Source of the DNA: Enterobacteria phage GiZh
Direction: 5' to 3' (one strand)
Sequence record: NC_054903.1
DNA: 64,000 bases
The position numbers and the translations under genes were made by a program. Positions 5,080 to 57,715 of this stretch are shown piece by piece (the first letter of the stretch is position 1; the number at the start of each line of letters is the position of its first letter). The notes under the pieces were generated by a model. The model did not search any database, was not told where the DNA came from, and saw only the letters and a list, made by a program, of their open reading frames with translations.

Positions 5080-7176
5080 TTATCCTTGAACGAACTTGTA
5101 AGGCATGTTTGTAATATCTATGCAAGACGCAATAATTCCAAGAGATGATTCTACTTTTTGTTTAACATTTGATGAAACAAATGATGCAAAGTCAACTCTG
5201 TCTTCTATTTCAATATCACCTGTCATTGCAACTACTTCGCCGGTTTCCATTAAATGGTCTCCGTCATAGATTACCGATTCGGTGAGTTCTTCGGTGGTCA
5301 TAACTTCAGCTTGAATGAGTTTTGTATTATTAGACGTGGTTCCGTCATTATTAGAAGCATCAGTTATTTTATTAACTTTGACCATCAATCCGCGCGGTAG
5401 AATAACTTCAGCTTCTGTTGCTATTCCGAGATTTCCTGGATATACAACATTAACTTTATGAGCTCCATCAATTGCCCATCCTATTTGAACTTTAACGTAT
5501 TCAGGATTTTCTTTATACGCTCTTATTTCGTTTGGATTAATAGTTATTCCTTCTTCATTTTTATCAACTGTCAATTCATTACGAGCTTCTGGTTCTAAAA
5601 GACCAATACCAGCATGTGTAATTCCAAAACGTCCAAAAATGATAGGAGTTAAAGAAGTAGATACAAAATTTCTGAAATAGAACACTTTATTTTTAACTAG
5701 TGCTTCGTATATAGGAGCAGTCATGCTTTGAGCACGATAAACTGTAATGCCTTCTGGTATACGGTCACCATTTTCAAAAGCTGAATCTAAGTTATTTATA
5801 GCAGATTCAATTTCTTTTTCACTCATTACATCATATCGTTCTGGATTGTAGCGTCCTAAAAGAAGATTATTGATGTCAGTATATCCTGAACCGCAATACT
5901 CTCTAATGCCACGCTTTTGTGATGGAGTATATTTAGAACCATCACGGGCAATAGTAATATCAATCATTGGACCTGCACCAATTCCAGAGAAACTATAAAT
6001 CATTCTTTTGAGGAATTTAGTTTTTGTCGCGTTCCAGGAATTTTTAGTTATTTCTTCCCAGACTTCATCTGGCTGTCCTTTACGTGTTTTATTATGTTTA
6101 TCAAGCCAATTATCTTTATATTCTTCAAAGAATTGATTAACAGCTGCTGCGTATTTCTCTAAACATTTTATTGAAGTAGTTGGTTCATTTTTAATCGCAT
6201 TAAGAATTACATCTTTAATTTTTTCAGAAACTTCATTAACCTCACTTTTTGAAAAGAATTTATAGTCATAATGAAGTTCATCTGCAGTTCCTTCAGCAAT
6301 AATTTTTGCTGCCTTAGTTTTAGAAGCTAATGAATTAATTCCAAGCTTCATTTCTTCTGCTTCGGGAATTAAAGGAGCCGTAGCAGGTTTATTGAAATTA
6401 GCTGCGGTAGATTCATACTTTTGGAATAATTCACTTTCAAATCTAGAAGATTCTAATGATTGACTTTGTGCAATTGCTCTACGGGAAATTTTAACTTTAA
6501 CGATTACAGCTTGGTCAGAACGTTTATCGTTTTCTTGCGCAATAGATGCAGCAATTGCCTCATTTTTAGTTACTTGAGCTCCAGTATCTTTATTGATATA
6601 AACATCACCAACCTTTGATTCAACTTTAGTAAAGAGCTCGGTACTAATTTCAGGAACTCCTGGAATGTCTTCTAATGATACATTTTTGCGATGTATAAGA
6701 ATATATGCATACTTTTTATCGTAATCCCAGAGTTCCTTAAGAAGGACGTATCTACCACCTGAACGACTACGGATAAGTCTATCAGCAATAAGTTGAATTT
6801 GTCGAGCTTGACCAGCAGTTTTAGACTTAAGAATACGGAGCATACAGGCATCAATTTTATACTGACGCATCGTTTGCATCGCAACAGTAAAAACTGAATT
6901 GATGTAATTAATTGGGCTTGGACCGAGACCTTTTAATTTAGCAATTGAACCTTTAGCAGTTAATGTAAAAGGAACAATATGCATCATTTTATCGCCCATC
7001 TTTAAATCGCGATTAGTATCACCTCCAGATGTATAGGTACACAAACGAAAGCCTGGTTGTTCAATTGCGTCATCAACATGAACTGAAAAAATTTGCGGTA
7101 TTTTCTTCTTTGGATTTAAGTTTGTAATCGGAAGAGTAGTATCTTCGTCAAATAATTCTGTAATGAGTTCCATCAT
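5080..7176 (-). CDS. Alt-like ADP-ribosyltransferase, paralogue B (698 aa)
   Basis: N-terminal 230 aa and C-terminal ART region align with paralogue A (MELITELFD..., YRAQ, FVSTSL, EAEVILPRG); central region divergent; TATAAATA late promoter upstream. Confidence 0.75.
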   Translation of the reverse strand: MMELITELFDEDTTLPITNLNPKKKIPQIFSVHVDDAIEQPGFRLCTYTSGGDTNRDLKMGDKMMHIVPFTLTAKGSIAKLKGLGPSPINYINSVFTVAMQTMRQYKIDACMLRILKSKTAGQARQIQLIADRLIRSRSGGRYVLLKELWDYDKKYAYILIHRKNVSLEDIPGVPEISTELFTKVESKVGDVYINKDTGAQVTKNEAIAASIAQENDKRSDQAVIVKVKISRRAIAQSQSLESSRFESELFQKYESTAANFNKPATAPLIPEAEEMKLGINSLASKTKAAKIIAEGTADELHYDYKFFSKSEVNEVSEKIKDVILNAIKNEPTTSIKCLEKYAAAVNQFFEEYKDNWLDKHNKTRKGQPDEVWEEITKNSWNATKTKFLKRMIYSFSGIGAGPMIDITIARDGSKYTPSQKRGIREYCGSGYTDINNLLLGRYNPERYDVMSEKEIESAINNLDSAFENGDRIPEGITVYRAQSMTAPIYEALVKNKVFYFRNFVSTSLTPIIFGRFGITHAGIGLLEPEARNELTVDKNEEGITINPNEIRAYKENPEYVKVQIGWAIDGAHKVNVVYPGNLGIATEAEVILPRGLMVKVNKITDASNNDGTTSNNTKLIQAEVMTTEELTESVIYDGDHLMETGEVVAMTGDIEIEDRVDFASFVSSNVKQKVESSLGIIASCIDITNMPYKFVQG

Positions 7177-43363: not shown

Positions 43364-43999
43364 TCACAGTTCAGATGCTACAGTGATTACAGCTTCAATG
43401 TTTTCTACTGAGCGTTTAATGTCAAGATACACATTACCGTTTTTAGCGATTTTACATGACATTCCGATATCAGTAAATTTCTGAATATGATGTTCCATCA
43501 TTTTGTATCCAAAAATTCGCATGTTTCCATTGTTGTTAATTTCAAAATTACGAATTCCGTGAGTGCGTTTTTCTAAAATAGCGAGATAGTTACTGCGATA
43601 AGTTTCGACCTTTTTAAGAACAAATCCATTTTCATCTAAAAGTTTTAACATGAGGTCTTTATCTTCTTCCATATCAGAAGTAATCTCACGAGCTTTACGA
43701 GTTGCTCGTTTTTTCAGCAGTTCCGGAGCATTTTCCTGCGCGTATAAAGTTGCTGCGTTTGAAATAATATCCTGAGCTTCACCTGTAATGATTAATCCAT
43801 CACCAGATTTCTCCACCAGGCCTTTTTTAATCAATACCCCAATATTACTATTAACTACTGCGTTACCTAAATCTGGATGCACCTCACGAACTTCTGCAGC
43901 TGTAATGAAATCTTTCTTAGCAATGGTAATTAAAATCGCAGCAGTTTTTTCATTCAGAACATCGTTAGAAGCTTTGATGATGTAAGTTACTTTAGACAT
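43364..43999 (-). CDS. motA: Middle-transcription activator MotA
   Basis: 211 aa as in T4 MotA; early-type promoter at 44030-44070 upstream. Confidence 0.85.
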   Translation of the reverse strand: MSKVTYIIKASNDVLNEKTAAILITIAKKDFITAAEVREVHPDLGNAVVNSNIGVLIKKGLVEKSGDGLIITGEAQDIISNAATLYAQENAPELLKKRATRKAREITSDMEEDKDLMLKLLDENGFVLKKVETYRSNYLAILEKRTHGIRNFEINNNGNMRIFGYKMMEHHIQKFTDIGMSCKIAKNGNVYLDIKRSVENIEAVITVASEL

Positions 44000-44029
44000 T
44001 TTCTAATCTCCGTAATTCTGTATCAGTAG

Positions 44030-44070
44030 TTGATAGTTGTATAGTACCACAGTATGCTTTGGTTGTAAAC
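44030..44070 (-). promoter_or_regulatory. T4 early-type promoter upstream of motA
   Basis: Conserved cassette ...cagtagttgatagttgtatagtaccac...ggttgtaaac (rc gives -35 TTTACA and -10 region). Confidence 0.5.
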
Positions 44071-44100
44071 CGTTTTGTGAAAAAATTTTAAAATAAAAAA

Positions 44101-44120
44101 GGGAGAGCCTCGGCTCTCCC
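44101..44120 (-). terminator. Rho-independent terminator downstream of gene 52 cluster
   Basis: GC-rich hairpin gggagagcc/ggctctccc with A8 on plus strand (U-run after the hairpin on the minus transcript). Confidence 0.65.
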
Positions 44121-44125
44121 TAAAA

Positions 44126-44275
44126 TTACTGCATGACAGTTATCACAGTCATGATAACACGTTGAATTCCGAACGCAAGAAGACCTCCTGCTATGGCTGG
44201 AACAACGCCTAAACCCGCCAGTAAAATGCTACCAGATACTAATGCAGCGCTTGTAATACCAATGAATGGACTCAT
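44126..44275 (-). CDS. Small hydrophobic glycine-zipper peptide (49 aa)
   Basis: Unlisted ORF MSPFIGITSAALVSGSILLAGLGVVPAIAGGLLAFGIQ...; ATGA overlap with gene 52 stop. Confidence 0.4.
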   Translation of the reverse strand: MSPFIGITSAALVSGSILLAGLGVVPAIAGGLLAFGIQRVIMTVITVMQ

Positions 44276-45600
44276 TTGATTTCCTCTAAATCTTTGGTGT
44301 ATTCGGTAACTACATCAGTAGTTTTCCAATATTCGTTTTCTTCTTTTTTAGCTTTAGCTTCTTCAGCAAGTTTCTTTGCTTCATCGGAAGTCATATGAAA
44401 AATATTCATTCCAACTAGTTTATCAACATAAGAAGAATACATATCGATTTTCGAAAGTTCTTCGGTCAGTTCTTTACGAGTTTTACCCTGTACAACAATT
44501 TCACCTGAAATTACTTTCTTAATGAAATGTGCCTTGGCAAAGGCTAAACGAAAAGCTGACTCAGTTTCTTTGATTTTGTTATCAATTCGTTTTTGGACAT
44601 AAGTTTTACGAACTTCAACAAAGTCTTTAATTAAATCGACTACGTTATCGTAAACTTGTAGTTTTCCTTTCTCATTAATAACCGTAATATTCTGAGAACG
44701 ACGCTCAATCAACCCAAAGTCTTTCATAATTTTTGCATGGCGTTCTTCTTCATTATCGCTCAAAGAATATTCTTTACGGAATTTAACTTTAAAGCCAAAA
44801 CCATGCTCACCACAAGCATCATCCCATGTAATGAAGCCTTTATCTTCAAGTGGGTCTAAGATTTTACTCACATAAGTTTCACGATCATACTTATACGGAA
44901 TCTCAGTGATATGCATTTGAGTTCGTGAAGTAAACTTATATGTTCCACGAATTTCATATTGCCCATCAATTTCAACGACTTCACCACGAAATTCTGGGAA
45001 TTCTACCTTCGGTTTAGTTACTTTCTTTCCTTGAAGAGCTTGCAGTACAGCTTTCTTAACAGAAGAAACACTATGAGGAAGAATGTAAGTTGCATAACCA
45101 GTTGCAATACCGGAAACGCCATTAAGAAGAACAGTAGGAATAATAGGCAAATAGAAAGCAGGCGGAATGTGTTCTTTATCTTGATGTACCGGAGCATATT
45201 CAGTATCTTTATATACGTTATAGAAATTTTTACTTACACGAGCAAAAATATAACGACTTGCTGCTGCTTTTTGGACGGTACGAGAACCAAAGTTTCCTTG
45301 ACCATCTAACAGAGGAAAATTATTATTCCAAGTGTTAGCCATCAAAGCACCTGCGTCTTGCGCAGAGTTTTCACCATGATGATATCCAAGGTCCGCTACA
45401 CCACCTGCAATAGAAGCGAGTTTGTGAAATTTATCTTTATTTCCTCGTGCCAAATCAAGAGCTCGAGCAATAACAAATCGTTGAACTGGCTTAAATCCGT
45501 CAATCATGTTTGGGATAGCACGATTTTCAACCGTGTACATAGCATAAGCCAATGCTTCATTATCAATGATACTTTTTAAATCGCGATTATTCAGTTGCAT
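44272..45600 (-). CDS. 52: DNA topoisomerase II medium subunit gp52
   Basis: 442 aa as in T4 gp52; GyrA-like cleavage-religation domain. Confidence 0.9.
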   Translation of the reverse strand: MQLNNRDLKSIIDNEALAYAMYTVENRAIPNMIDGFKPVQRFVIARALDLARGNKDKFHKLASIAGGVADLGYHHGENSAQDAGALMANTWNNNFPLLDGQGNFGSRTVQKAAASRYIFARVSKNFYNVYKDTEYAPVHQDKEHIPPAFYLPIIPTVLLNGVSGIATGYATYILPHSVSSVKKAVLQALQGKKVTKPKVEFPEFRGEVVEIDGQYEIRGTYKFTSRTQMHITEIPYKYDRETYVSKILDPLEDKGFITWDDACGEHGFGFKVKFRKEYSLSDNEEERHAKIMKDFGLIERRSQNITVINEKGKLQVYDNVVDLIKDFVEVRKTYVQKRIDNKIKETESAFRLAFAKAHFIKKVISGEIVVQGKTRKELTEELSKIDMYSSYVDKLVGMNIFHMTSDEAKKLAEEAKAKKEENEYWKTTDVVTEYTKDLEEIK

Positions 45601-45604
45601 AAAT

Positions 45605-45745
45605 TTACCATACTAGTGAATGTAGTGCCATAATAACATCAGAAATGAAAAGCACGACTTGAATTAATCCGAACATTACTCCATAATATAGTGCTACTAA
45701 TAAAGTAGCAAGGGCTAATGAATAGCCCAAGATTTTCTTAATCAT
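45605..45745 (-). CDS. Small hydrophobic peptide (46 aa)
   Basis: Unlisted ORF MIKKILGYSLALATLLVALYYGVMFGLIQVV... Confidence 0.35.
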   Translation of the reverse strand: MIKKILGYSLALATLLVALYYGVMFGLIQVVLFISDVIMALHSLVW

Positions 45746-45896
45746 TAGTAGATAACAACACAAATGTTAAATATGCACACATACCCTGGGCTAAAGCTTG
45801 TGAAAACACACTGCTAGCATCGATACAGATAGTTAAAACACATGCTACTATCCAACAAATAAATGAAATAACTCCTAATAATTTTGCGATATTCAT
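45738..45896 (-). CDS. ac: Small membrane protein, probable Ac (acridine sensitivity)
   Basis: Unlisted 52-aa hydrophobic ORF between 52 and stp, as T4 ac (about 51 aa). Confidence 0.45.
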   Translation of the reverse strand: MNIAKLLGVISFICWIVACVLTICIDASSVFSQALAQGMCAYLTFVLLSTND

Positions 45897-45903
45897 ATTT
45901 TCC

Positions 45904-45984
45904 TCACTGGCGTCCGAAGACGCCTTTAGTTTTAAGATTGTTACGATAAAACTGCATCACATGTTCGTTGTGGAAATTACTCAT
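45904..45984 (-). CDS. stp: Stp peptide (suppressor of three-prime phosphatase; activator of PrrC anticodon nuclease)
   Basis: Unlisted 26-codon ORF translating to [26 protein letters not shown], which matches T4 Stp as recalled; start overlaps ndd stop. Confidence 0.85.
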
Positions 45985-46427
45985 TAATATGCCTGCAAAA
46001 CGAATTTAAAGTTATCAGCCAACATACGGTTCATTTCTTCAAGTGTTTGATACTCAGAATGATGATTACGAGTAAACGCCAAAGCTAACTGACCTTTACC
46101 AAATCCTGTCGTCAGAGGTTTCATCTTAGAAGCAGGCAGATAAAATACTGTGTATGGAACATTGTTATTTGCAATAGTACGCGCAAGTTGAGACCGGCGT
46201 TGACGAATATGACTTAGAACTGCGCTGAATCCTTGCTTAGAACGCTGATTACCCACATAAAATCGTGCGGATACGCATGAACCATCGAATTCATTTACTA
46301 AAAAGTAAAATCCAGGTTTAGATAAAATATCTTTATGCGGAGTTCCCAAAAACCACTCACCGCCCTTGATTGTACCAATAACAGTAGCGCCTGCGTTGTT
46401 CAGATCAGTAACAGCCATATATTTCAT
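45984..46427 (-). CDS. ndd: Nucleoid disruption protein Ndd
   Basis: About 147 aa from [28 protein letters not shown]; position between stp and denB. Confidence 0.8.
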
Positions 46428-46487
46428 TTTAATTTCCTCTAAATTATTTTCTACTCCAAGGCCGCATGAATACATACGGCCGATAAA

Positions 46488-46703
46488 TTAATCGTCGCAG
46501 TCGACGCTCAATTCCCAAAACTCTTCTACAGTATAAGTTTCAGTATCATTTTCAATACAGAAACGTTCATTACTATTATTTGCTAAAGTAGCATTAACTG
46601 TCGGTTTCTCGCTAGTGCTCTTAAGAGGTGAAATACGAATTAACTGATCACCATTATCTAAACAGAAAATTTCACCAACTTTTACATCTTTAAAACTTTT
46701 CAT
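46488..46703 (-). CDS. Hypothetical protein (71 aa)
   Basis: ORF in ndd-denB interval. Confidence 0.45.
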   Translation of the reverse strand: MKSFKDVKVGEIFCLDNGDQLIRISPLKSTSEKPTVNATLANNSNERFCIENDTETYTVEEFWELSVDCDD

Positions 46704-46818
46704 AATTCACCTCAAGGAGTATAAAATCCAAATGCAGTTGTTGACCATCCCATCCAATATGGGAAATTTGCACCAATGTAAAACATGAGAATATAAAACC
46801 AACCACTCAGCAAATTCA

Positions 46819-47037
46819 TCATTTTACACCATTCCAAATTGTTTCAACCACAGATTTTAAACCATTTTGATGAATATCCATTCCGACTACCGCCATCAAA
46901 TAGATTCCAACTACAACTGAACCTAAGGCAAAAATCAGCATGAAAATGAATAAAGCCGGAAAAATATTATCGAAAAACCATTCAATAAATGTAAAAGCAC
47001 TACGTTTACGCTTCATATTTTCCTCACATAAATCCAA
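46819..47037 (-). CDS. Small membrane protein (72 aa or shorter)
   Basis: Hydrophobic core FPALFIFMLIFALGSVVVGIYLMAVVG. Confidence 0.45.
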   Translation of the reverse strand: MDLCEENMKRKRSAFTFIEWFFDNIFPALFIFMLIFALGSVVVGIYLMAVVGMDIHQNGLKSVVETIWNGVK

Positions 47038-47136
47038 AATAAGCGTTTAATACATCAATCATTAAAACGATTGGGAATATACTCAAAACTACTAGTATTA
47101 TAACTACATTCCATATAGCTTTAATAATCTTTTTCA
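47024..47136 (-). CDS. Small membrane peptide (about 37 aa from MKKIIKAIWNVV)
   Basis: Listed 69-aa ORF reads through the promoter cassette; likely true start is the internal Met. Confidence 0.35.
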
Positions 47137-47379
47137 TTTTCTGTTCCTCCGTAGTTGATAGGGTAATAGTACCACGGAAGAACAGTCTTGTAAACAACTT
47201 TTTAAAAATATTCGTAATAAATGTGAATACCAACTACTACCGCTGAAACCTGTGCAACCCACCACGCACAAGCAATAAGTACAGAATTCAAAATTTTCAT
47301 AATAACCTCATCACAAAAGTAAATGTTAAACAAATTACTGGAATACTAATTAACCAAACAAAACACCACCATAATGAAC

Positions 47380-47643
47380 TCATAGCTCAATCTCAGCGAT
47401 TTTCATTTCATTACTATTAATAGCCTCTTTAAGACTATCTGAAAGAATTACATTCCAGTGGTCATTCATATGACCATTAACTAAGCGTGTAATTTCTTCA
47501 GGAGTTGAAAAATAAGGCTGATCAGACTCCCAATGCGATAATCCTAAGCGAGTATAAATCATGCCTTCATCATCGCTCGAATATTCAACTGACACAAACT
47601 CATCAGTTATTTTATGCTTAGCATAATAAAATTTAAATTTCAT
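47380..47643 (-). CDS. Hypothetical protein (about 87 aa from MKFKFYYAKHK)
   Basis: Listed 120-aa ORF reads through early-promoter cassette 47662-47707; internal Met preceded by GGAG. Confidence 0.45.
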   Translation of the reverse strand: MKFKFYYAKHKITDEFVSVEYSSDDEGMIYTRLGLSHWESDQPYFSTPEEITRLVNGHMNDHWNVILSDSLKEAINSNEMKIAEIEL

Positions 47644-47723
47644 TTTACTCTCCAAATCCGTATCAGTTGATAGTTGTATAGTACCACGGTCCTTGTGGTA
47701 TGTAAACCGTTTTGTGAAAATTT

Positions 47724-48281
47724 TTAAATGGAAAGATACCATCCGTTGTAGTTGCTTTTTCTTACAACCTTACGAAGGTCTTCTCTGTCACCGATGAACT
47801 TCGGAGTGTACTGGATGACACCTGGATGAATTTCTTTAGTGTTGAATATAATTATACAGTCGGCGACTTGATGATTTAGAATGGGCCCTAGATTTATTCC
47901 AGAACCATATGGATACTCTCCGCTGCATCCTGTTGTTACCGAAATCCAACGTGAGTCAGTTTGATGTGTCTTAACTTCTACACGAAGCCCACAGTATTTT
48001 GGATGCGCCAATACATCCCATGCGTATGTATACGGGTCATTAACATCCTCTTGGCCTTTATTAACATACCCGCTTAGCCAATCTGCTACAAAAAATTCTG
48101 CGTACACAGCGATACGGCATCTTTCGATAACTTCTGCCTTATCCTGATTTGGATTTTGTTTTAAAGAGTATCTTGCTGTATCAGCAATTTTGACCTTCAT
48201 TTCACTAGTCAAGTCACTGTTCGATAGGGTAAATGTCGGAATCTGAAATAGTCTCTGTAAACCCGGATTCGTTTTCTGCAT
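47724..48281 (-). CDS. denB: Endonuclease IV
   Basis: 185 aa as in T4 DenB; position between ndd cluster and rIIB. Confidence 0.8.
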   Translation of the reverse strand: MQKTNPGLQRLFQIPTFTLSNSDLTSEMKVKIADTARYSLKQNPNQDKAEVIERCRIAVYAEFFVADWLSGYVNKGQEDVNDPYTYAWDVLAHPKYCGLRVEVKTHQTDSRWISVTTGCSGEYPYGSGINLGPILNHQVADCIIIFNTKEIHPGVIQYTPKFIGDREDLRKVVRKSNYNGWYLSI

Positions 48282-54512: not shown

Positions 54513-54689
54513 TTATCCTTTAAGTAAGTCGTAAAATCCGCCATTCACATGCTTAGGAGCAGAAGGCCGACGAGTAGACAAACGATGACATTTAGGGCAA
54601 ACATCATTTTCTCGTTCAGAAATCTTTTTAATTTTTTCATATTCATGCCCGCAATCTTCGGATTGGCATTTATAATCATACATTGGCAT
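54513..54689 (-). CDS. FmdB-like zinc-ribbon protein (58 aa)
   Basis: Unlisted ORF MPMYDYKCQSEDCGHEYEKIKKISERENDVCPKCHRLS...; CxxC...CxxC zinc ribbon with MPxYxYxC start. Confidence 0.45.
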   Translation of the reverse strand: MPMYDYKCQSEDCGHEYEKIKKISERENDVCPKCHRLSTRRPSAPKHVNGGFYDLLKG

Positions 54690-57652: not shown

Positions 57653-57715
57653 TTTATTATCCTCAGTAGCTATGGTGTTATAGTACCACAACTAACCGAG
57701 GAAGTAAACAACTTT

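Follow-up and report, generated by a model that had tools for sequence, protein, structure and literature searches.

Among the small early peptides of bacteriophage T4, functions have been attached to Stp and, in part, to Ac. T4 Stp is established as an inhibitor of EcoprrI, whose inhibition releases the PrrC anticodon nuclease. For Ac, the 'acridine resistance' membrane peptide, deletion or the G38R substitution renders T4 resistant to acriflavine, expression in E. coli confers sensitivity to acriflavine and ampicillin, and infected cells are made to accumulate acridines (bioRxiv 10.1101/2025.06.30.662393). The mechanism is proposed, not demonstrated: the authors suggest a block of AcrAB-TolC (bioRxiv 10.1101/2025.06.30.662393; repeated in PMC13250531). 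Small regulators of the bacterial inner membrane, such as AcrZ, or Gp11 of phage PhiNM1 (PMC11237401), have fewer than 70 amino acids (aa) and one or two helices, and bind larger membrane proteins. Here we describe a cluster of small hydrophobic peptide genes in a 64,000-nucleotide (nt) window of Enterobacteria phage GiZh (record NC_054903.1; the window is the whole stretch of DNA that was analysed, and positions are counted from its first letter). The region in question is the classical non-essential one of a T-even phage, from rIIB/denB to gene 52. We find that motA.1, 52.1, ac, ndd.2, a 65-aa gene, ndd.4, ndd.5 and ndd.6 are genuine genes under purifying selection, and we think it probable that they specify early accessory peptides of the inner membrane, each binding a host membrane protein, with Ac as the model.

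The 5.5 kb around the cluster gave matches to 946 phage records, the best of which, at about 97% identity, were Escherichia phages FL08, Kha5h and RB14. All three belong to the genus Tequatrovirus, so that the window is a T4-like genome, slightly divergent from each of the records in the collection searched. Its minus strand, which carries every gene of 43364-48281, was read and translated, and compared with the annotation of RB14, Kha5h and T4. In order of position, the peptide genes are motA.1 (44126-44275, 49 aa, hydrophobic and rich in Gly, Ala and Ser), 52.1 (45605-45745, 46 aa), ac (45738-45896, 52 aa), ndd.2 (46712-46822, 36 aa, aromatic-rich and moderately hydrophobic), the 65-aa gene (46819-47016), ndd.4 (47024-47137, 37 aa), ndd.5 (47202-47300, 32 aa, a single-helix peptide) and ndd.6 (47297-47383, 28 aa, a hydrophobic single-helix peptide). 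Stp (45904-45984, 26 aa), soluble and basic, is encoded next to ac.

A sequence-only reading of this DNA had placed peptides of 28-52 aa, said to be unlisted or mislabelled, in four intervals. Open reading frames (ORFs) for six peptides do exist there on the minus strand, and they are real, conserved and hydrophobic neighbours of stp and ac, as had been supposed, but two of the interval ends were slightly off: 46819-47136 contains two genes, the 65-aa gene and ndd.4, and stops one base before the end of ndd.4, and 47201-47376, with ndd.5 and ndd.6, stops 7 bases before the end of ndd.6. The size range fits the peptides in these intervals except the 65-aa one, which exceeds it, and ndd.2 lies just outside the intervals. 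Nor are the peptides unlisted, all being named in the annotation of T4 and RB14, with PHROG or Pfam families.

In its denB-motA region, T4 has the same gene order, strand and overlaps as the window. Stp, Ndd.5 and Ndd.6 are identical in the two phages, MotA.1, 52.1 and Ndd.2 differ by one residue each, and Ndd.4 by two. For Stp, the identity extends over 26/26 aa, which bears out the exact match given in the sequence-only reading, and because of it the Stp of the window very likely acts likewise on EcoprrI/PrrC. Ac of the window is T4 Ac with one Thr added near the C-terminus, and Gly38 is kept. The extra Thr marks the common variant of Ac and is reported to have no effect; with this insertion (as in PP01), Ac is reported to behave like that of T4 (bioRxiv 10.1101/2025.06.30.662393). 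Among the membrane peptides of the cluster, a phenotype is known for Ac alone, which serves as a model for the possible action of the others.

Two gene models differ between T4 and the window. Where the window has the intact 65-aa gene, T4 has a frameshifted ndd.3/ndd.2a pair: T4 'ndd.3' (26 aa) and 'ndd.2a' (40 aa) together make up one DUF7248 gene of 65 aa, split by a single-base deletion. The missing nucleotide is right after the ATG (T4 ATGAA-CGT, window ATGAAGCGT; window 46819-47016, T4 locus L003 4933-5130), and T4 'ndd.3' is a wrong-frame remnant with no PHROG (a singleton). The second difference concerns ndd.4, annotated with 42 aa in T4. The ATG used for that model was made by a C-to-T change within the GGAGG ribosome-binding site (ACTATGGAGG in T4 versus ACTACGGAGG in the window; window 47137-47152, T4 L003 about 5260-5265), and the conserved start, present in the window, gives 37 aa.

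To measure selection, 41 loci around gp52 homologues were taken from IMG/VR, with 47-100% gp52 identity; peptide families were located in them by iterated profile searches, and the presence/absence map covers 45 loci. The median pairwise ratio of nonsynonymous to synonymous substitution rates (dN/dS) was 0.07 for motA.1, 0.26 for ndd.4, 0.27 for ac, 0.29 for ndd.2, 0.31 for 52.1, 0.40 for ndd.6 (across the family) and 0.44 for the 65-aa gene. For comparison, values of 0.26, 0.28, 0.14 and 0.31 were obtained for ndd, motA, gp52 and orf87, respectively. Among 8 Tequatroviruses, the corresponding ratio of proportions of differences (pN/pS) was 0.08 for ndd.5 and 0.135 for ndd.6, and a hand count from the alignment gave 9 synonymous versus 3 conservative replacement sites in ndd.5. 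A query made of ndd.5 and ndd.6 matched 498 phage records, 494 of them at an identity of at least 90%; ndd.5 is confined to close relatives of T4. Across phages whose gp52 is 60-80% identical, orthologues of the peptides retained their length and frame. The two exceptions, the split 65-aa gene of T4 and a read-through ndd.6 in one metagenomic phage, support the rule. The peptide genes are under purifying selection in a range like that of their neighbours ndd, motA and orf87.

It could be argued that the peptides are chance frames in AT/T-rich DNA, rich in Phe, Leu and Ile by composition, and not genes. Many spurious hydrophobic ORFs do lie in other frames nearby, such as a 59-aa ORF inside gene 52; mass spectrometry saw none of the peptides, and knockouts were without phenotype. 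However, hydrophobic ORFs are common in AT-rich DNA, yet purifying selection is here as strong as in proven neighbour genes, which makes the cluster more than chance. Moreover, frames and lengths are held across divergent phages, the coding strand is tiled without gaps, with Shine-Dalgarno sequences or ATGA/TAATG overlaps, and Ac mutants have a phenotype. We give next to no credence to chance frames, which the substitution pattern already contradicts.

Hydropathy was computed according to Kyte-Doolittle in 19-residue windows, with a threshold of 1.6. Seven peptides (motA.1, 52.1, ac, the 65-aa protein, ndd.4, ndd.5 and ndd.6) had windows above it, with maxima of 2.2-3.05, and no such window was found in stp, ndd.1, ndd.2 or orf87. 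Peaks were at residues 11-29 for ndd.4 (3.05), and at residues 7-25 for ac (2.74), ndd.6 (2.33) and ndd.5 (2.17). Basic N-termini (MIKK, MKRKRS and MKKIIK, that is KK, KRKR and KKxxK) stand ahead of the helix. In ndd.4, MKKIIK is followed by one very hydrophobic helix, and in the 65-aa protein, MKRKRS is followed by a single long helix and then by the conserved polar tail GLKSVVETIWNG, which distant orthologues also retain.

With family alignments as input, AlphaFold2 modelled 52.1 as one continuous helix (residues 2-45, pLDDT 96), and motA.1 as two (residues 3-19 and 24-48, pLDDT 91), the break falling at a conserved AG-(LG/QP) turn. Along the 52.1 helix, the N-terminal half is variable and the C-terminal half (YYGVxYGLIxIVLFISDV...W) is highly conserved, with an invariant final Trp. 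The motA.1 helices carry small-xxx-small-xxx-small runs and no strict GxxxG, so that the 'glycine zipper' of the sequence-only reading holds in a loose sense.

Over the 64-kb window, the small ORFs of the coding strand that occupy gaps left by long ORFs and have a 17-residue hydropathy above 2.0 were these seven, within 3.3 kb. The sole other gap-filling hydrophobic candidate, at 54545-54679, overlaps another ORF and is doubtful. The dense cluster is real in this respect, with seven of seven credible strongly hydrophobic gap-filling small genes in 3.3 kb. At 54513-54689 (-), overlapping small ORFs encode a 58-aa Cys-rich, zinc-ribbon-like protein (CxxC...CxxC) and, in another frame, a 44-aa hydrophobic one, which is probably spurious. 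All-against-all profile-profile comparison of the cluster peptides gave probabilities below 8%, so that they are not one duplicated family. By phmmer, motA.1 was linked to a family of 57-60 aa through one sequence only (E about 3e-4), and this link was not accepted.

The genes denB, ndd, gene 52 and motA were present in nearly all 45 loci (ndd in 42/45). For the peptides, counts were 30 for 52.1, 24 for ndd.4, 22 for ndd.6, 17 for the 65-aa gene, 15 each for ac and ndd.2, 14 for stp, 12 for motA.1 and 9 for ndd.5; under looser clustering, the family including ac, possibly together with a related 52-54-aa family, was found in 26 loci. The peptides are thus gained, lost and replaced between related phages. 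This agrees with an earlier description of the region as hyperplastic, in which ndd.4/.5 were exchanged for other ORFs via promoter-stem-loop (PeSL) cassettes (Comeau et al. 2014, PMC4122927, Fig. 6A).

Around gene 52, replacement followed a positional pattern. The interval from ndd to gene 52 held only small hydrophobic ORFs in 39/41 loci (L004-L044). The families differed, and included ac-like peptides, 52.1, a two-helix family of 57-60 aa that has a conserved E-R motif and, in distant phages, two further ones. Where present, 52.1 always adjoined gene 52. On the other side, a small hydrophobic ORF started on the gene 52 stop codon in 27 loci, and belonged to six unrelated families, namely motA.1, a 34-aa family, a 45-aa family, and ORFs of 23, 22 and 77 aa. 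This site is at 44272-44275 in the window, and at the same position in L008-L028, L034, L040, L043 and L044, a non-homologous replacement at one position. Values of pN/pS were 0.08 for the 34-aa replacement family and 0.62 for the 45-aa family. The shortest ORFs (22-23 aa) could be there by chance, because any gene ending in NNA-TGA yields an ATG, and the start-on-stop ORF was missing in more distant phages (gp52 identity below about 65%). A broad reading, in our view very improbable, would be that both slots flanking gene 52 are under selection for 'some small membrane peptide' of whatever family, with unrelated families interchanging in different T4-like phages.

Published screens of T4 inform on the need for these genes. 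Transposon sequencing by HIDEN-SEQ classed all the peptides as Non-essential, with insertions at 16/16 TA sites in 52.1, 11/11 in motA.1 and 18/18 in ndd.4, and gene 52 as essential (bioRxiv 10.1101/2025.11.20.689424). By CRISPRi-ART, all the peptides were 'Not Fit' and gene 52 was 'Fit' (PMC11879866). The peptides are therefore individually dispensable in the laboratory.

These data bear on the possibility that the ORFs are translated spacers, whose translation couples or sets the expression of neighbours, above all that of gene 52, the peptides themselves being incidental. Start/stop overlaps occur along the whole operon, gene 52, for which no Shine-Dalgarno sequence is obvious, begins 4 nt downstream of the stop of the always adjoining 52.1, and the small ORF on the gene 52 stop codon, with its 27 loci and six unrelated families, would also fit. 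Yet the amino acids are conserved, as seen from the low dN/dS of motA.1 (0.07), the low pN/pS of the 34-aa family (0.08) and the C-terminal half of 52.1. Furthermore, although gene 52, downstream, is essential, the phage tolerates insertions in 52.1 (16/16 TA sites) as well as knockdown directed at the 52.1 start, and translation of gene 52 cannot be driven by an ORF that follows it, such as motA.1. Amino-acid conservation and the tolerated insertions contradict a pure spacer role, which we hold to be quite improbable. The tight coupling to gene 52 also suggested a membrane anchor for the topoisomerase. This was rated unlikely, because motA.1 and 52.1 are dispensable and gene 52 is essential, and because, on our reading of the locus map, the more distant T4-like phages have no peptide gene after gene 52. 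In the literature searched, a membrane association of gp39/gp52 found no support.

Timing is known from a time-resolved transcriptome and proteome of T4, in which the transcripts of motA.1, 52.1, ac, stp, ndd.2, ndd.2a and ndd.3-ndd.6 are classed as 'early', and in which the proteins Ndd and Ndd.1 were detected, Ndd.1 early (PMC9697503, Table S2). In the mechanism that we favour, the eight cistrons, which encode unrelated hydrophobic peptides of 28-65 aa, would be expressed from the first minutes of infection, and their products would enter the inner membrane of the host in the form of single helices or helical hairpins. Each would bind a particular host inner-membrane complex and adjust it for the phage, the targets being transport or efflux, envelope functions, and possibly membrane-bound defence systems. 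The peptides would then be host- or niche-specific accessory factors, and neither general membrane poisons nor components required for replication. We infer membrane insertion and host-protein binding, with specific partners, because conservation is segment-specific (the C-terminal half of 52.1, the tail of the 65-aa protein) and because of the precedent of Ac. The proposed block of AcrAB-TolC by Ac (bioRxiv 10.1101/2025.06.30.662393; PMC13250531) is in line with the 'modulators of host transporters' of the sequence-only reading. Apart from the weak resemblance of 52.1 to AcrZ described below, the window peptides have no sequence relationship with AcrZ or Gp11, and the analogy would be functional only.

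Several points weigh against this mechanism. Direct evidence of translation or insertion is confined to the genetics of ac. For short hydrophobic sequences, hydropathy and AlphaFold models are a weak guide to topology, and ndd.2 is under the transmembrane threshold. No protein was detected for the same T4 peptides (PMC9697503, Table S2), a result which, expected as it is in mass spectrometry of small hydrophobic peptides, proves nothing either way. In the part of the HIDEN-SEQ fitness table that holds the rows for 52.1, motA.1, ndd.2a-ndd.6 and stp, there was no significant change (q = 1.0) and no conditional phenotype, and the link between Ac and AcrAB is itself only a proposal (bioRxiv 10.1101/2025.06.30.662393). 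In the literature, ribosome profiling of T4 was not found, and a search by gene name returned nothing on the individual small genes, only unrelated medical papers on 'NDD'.

The sequence-only reading had considered membrane-targeting toxins. Peptides that damage the membrane, or holin-like or exclusion peptides, would depolarise or permeabilise the host membrane, and in size and hydrophobicity the cluster peptides are like type I toxins and small holins. The sensitivity to acriflavine and ampicillin brought about by Ac could also mean leakiness (bioRxiv 10.1101/2025.06.30.662393). However, NCBIfam and PADLOC scans for known toxin, defence or bacterial families gave none above cut-off for any peptide, immediate-early promoters drive the genes, and what is conserved is specific segments and not mere hydrophobicity. 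The genes are early ones, whose products are made for the whole infection, and T4 depends on an energised membrane up to lysis, which comes after about 25 minutes or, under lysis inhibition, later still. Moreover, the abstract of the Ac study speaks only of a raised susceptibility to acriflavine on Ac expression, and not of cell killing by Ac on its own (bioRxiv 10.1101/2025.06.30.662393). Immediate-early expression, the lack of a toxin family match in these scans and the need of T4 for an energised cell make a general toxin role less likely. The toxin claim is thus unsupported, and we regard this possibility as unlikely.

A different use of the membrane would be in counter-defence: like Stp, the peptides would act against, or trigger, host defence, here membrane-bound abortive-infection or exclusion systems of particular hosts. 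This overlaps with the accessory role proposed above rather than excluding it. The genes are neighbours of stp and close to rIIB, and the rII genes counter RexAB. In addition, gene content is accessory and variable between phages, and the peptides are dispensable on laboratory K-12. Against this, the HIDEN-SEQ fitness rows given for these genes are without effect (q = 1.0), and the peptides have no sequence link to known anti-defence proteins. A role of this kind for the cluster seems to us rather unlikely.

The best-studied lytic phage has a large set of accessory genes that are still unexplained, and the peptides are among them. Should each peptide act on a host membrane machine, as is proposed for Ac and drug efflux, they would offer ready probes or inhibitors for transporters and envelope systems of bacteria, and could explain differences of host range among therapeutic T4-like phages. 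As it stands, the finding re-identifies annotated genes, and its practical value lies in corrected gene models and experimental pointers.

One such pointer concerns 52.1 and AcrZ, the AcrB-binding inner-membrane peptide of E. coli (49 aa; PDB 4C48, 5NC5; its sequence was checked against PDB 4C48). In this scheme, ac and 52.1 would form a conserved, translationally coupled module directed against AcrB, with an AcrZ-like 52.1 docking and Ac inhibiting. The two peptides are similar in size, form a single long helix, and have in common a G-x-x-Y-G-[LI]-x-E-[VI] stretch. Aligned by hhalign, 52.1 and AcrZ gave a probability of 36-47%, a P of 2e-4 to 4e-4 and a score of 20.9-21.6, above 600/600 column shuffles (maximum 18.3). 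This signal is weakened by unrelated peptide profiles of the cluster, which score up to 18.7 with AcrZ. In favour of the link, AcrZ reached 10.2 bits (E = 6 at PDB size) with a 42-sequence 52.1 profile; the window 52.1, however, reached only 2.3 bits with an AcrZ profile, the signal coming mostly from one 52.1 subfamily (L024/26/27). A PDB profile search with 52.1 did not list AcrZ at E <= 10, and for 52.1 no Pfam or NCBIfam match to the AcrZ family (PF10766) was obtained. Orientation is a further difference. In AcrZ, the N-terminus is periplasmic and the basic C-terminal tail cytoplasmic. In 52.1, it is the N-terminus that is basic and conserved as such (MIKK/MKR), and the C-terminus is not basic, which by the positive-inside rule suggests an orientation opposite to that of AcrZ. 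The resemblance between the two sequences thus appears weak, and the AcrB-directed module very improbable.

In a PHROG profile search, each peptide matched one family over its full length: phrog_3487 for motA.1 (E 1e-30), phrog_8851 for ndd.6 (E 1.6e-17), phrog_2501 for ac (E 3.7e-25, residues 1-51), phrog_6763 for stp, phrog_4135 for ndd.2, phrog_3098 for ndd.4, phrog_5011 for ndd.5 and phrog_2401 for the 65-aa gene. In a Pfam scan, stp matched PF08133 Nuclease_act ('Anticodon nuclease activator') over its full length 1-26 (75.3 bits, cut-off 25), 52.1 matched PF24129 or DUF7396 (81.9 bits, cut-off 27, residues 1-46), and the 65-aa protein PF23906 or DUF7248 (Ndd.2a; 71.9 bits, cut-off 27, residues 6-63); the same scan gave no family for motA.1, ac, ndd.2, ndd.4, ndd.5 and ndd.6. 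For homologues of motA.1, the precomputed Pfam assignment of the database is PF26886, and their 21 clusters have phage-type names or none. PF24129 is carried by all 38 database clusters of 52.1, a family confined to T4-like enterobacterial phages.

All the peptides are thus already-annotated T4 genes, with functions assigned to stp and, in part, to ac. Beyond the annotation, this analysis adds only the revised gene models, the positional pattern at gene 52 and, as a lead, a possible link between ac and 52.1. Mislabelling, the other half of the original complaint, was a fair description. The label 'outer membrane protein' is implausible on helical peptides of 28-32 aa, and 'periplasmic protein' is found as well. 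For motA.1, the labels include 'transcriptional regulator' (Kha5h) and, on one homologue, 'flagellar motor protein MotA [Shigella flexneri]'. The T6 homologue of ndd.4, a coding sequence (CDS) abutting the ndd.5/ndd.6 match, is named 'naphthalene 1,2-dioxygenase', as are two JLBYU22 CDSs under the ndd.5/ndd.6 match. Wrong annotations have propagated across database records of these peptides.

The other genes of the region, on the same strand, are motA (43364-43999), gene 52 (44272-45600), a core gene which encodes the medium subunit of topoisomerase II and has peptide genes on both flanks, ndd (45984-46427), the conserved core gene of the region, encoding the nucleoid disruption protein, ndd.1 (46488-46703, 71 aa), soluble and acidic, which is a member of the operon and not a membrane peptide, orf87 (47380-47643), and denB (47724-48281). 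The 87-aa soluble product of orf87 corresponds to RB14ncORF269c and phrog_2390; the gene is present in the window and in RB14, and T4 is without it.

Two early transcription units can be drawn. The first runs from a promoter at 47707-47678 through orf87, its first cistron, to ndd.6 and ndd.5. The second starts from a promoter at 47195-47166, proceeds through ndd.4, the 65-aa gene, ndd.2, ndd.1, ndd, stp, ac, 52.1, gene 52 and motA.1, the last cistron, and closes at an intrinsic terminator at 44121-44100. This terminator (44100-44121, minus strand) has a 9-bp stem with 6 GC pairs followed by T6 (-17.6 kcal/mol, z = -4.5), and is annotated as a terminator in Kha5h; it lies upstream of the motA promoter. 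Nearly each cistron begins on, or a few bases from, the preceding stop codon. ATGA overlaps join orf87 to ndd.6, ndd.6 to ndd.5, the 65-aa gene to ndd.2, and gene 52 to motA.1, and the ndd/stp overlap is TAATG. The 52.1 ATG lies 8 nt inside ac, and the gene 52 ATG 4 nt after the 52.1 stop. GAGG is found 5 nt upstream of ndd.5 and 7 nt upstream of motA.1, and GGAGGA 7 nt upstream of ndd.4; GAGGA overlaps the stops of ndd.4 and stp, and GAGGTG that of ndd.2.

Two more hairpins lie within the second unit, both on the minus strand. The one between ndd.1 and ndd (46460-46481, -17 kcal/mol, z = -3.4) has no U tract and is therefore not a classical terminator; a role in processing or stabilising the RNA of the early operon is possible. 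The other, at the 3' end of stp (45909-45924, -11.5 kcal/mol), is a GGCGUC-UUCG-GACGCC tetraloop hairpin in the last stp codons, directly upstream of the ac ribosome-binding site, so that RNA structure may be a further constraint on the conserved Stp C-terminus (KGVFGRQ). An Rfam scan of the whole window gave no RNA family.

The promoters are of the T4 early type, and on the minus strand. The first (47678-47707), ahead of orf87-ndd.6-ndd.5, consists of GTTTACA, N17 and the extended -10 element GTGGTACTAT. The second (47166-47195), ahead of ndd.4, is conserved in 8 Tequatroviruses, and a third cassette is found ahead of motA (44041-44070). These three near-identical copies bound the peptide genes. 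The pattern GTTTAC-N(14-16)-GTGGTACTAT had 4 exact matches in the window versus 0 in 100 shuffles. Stem-loops aside, such repeated early promoter cassettes flanking variable small genes are as described for PeSL cassettes (Comeau, Arbiol and Krisch 2014, PMC4122927), with near-identical early promoters likewise repeated before motA, ndd.4 and orf87. The cassettes explain the shuffling of the genes, not their function. Between orf87 and motA, promoter and leader hardly differ (GTGGTACTATACAACTATCAACT), in keeping with a cassette-mediated insertion or loss of the segment at 47380-47707. The fourth exact cassette, GTTTAC...GTGGTACTAT, is at 57680-57709 (-), outside the region studied.

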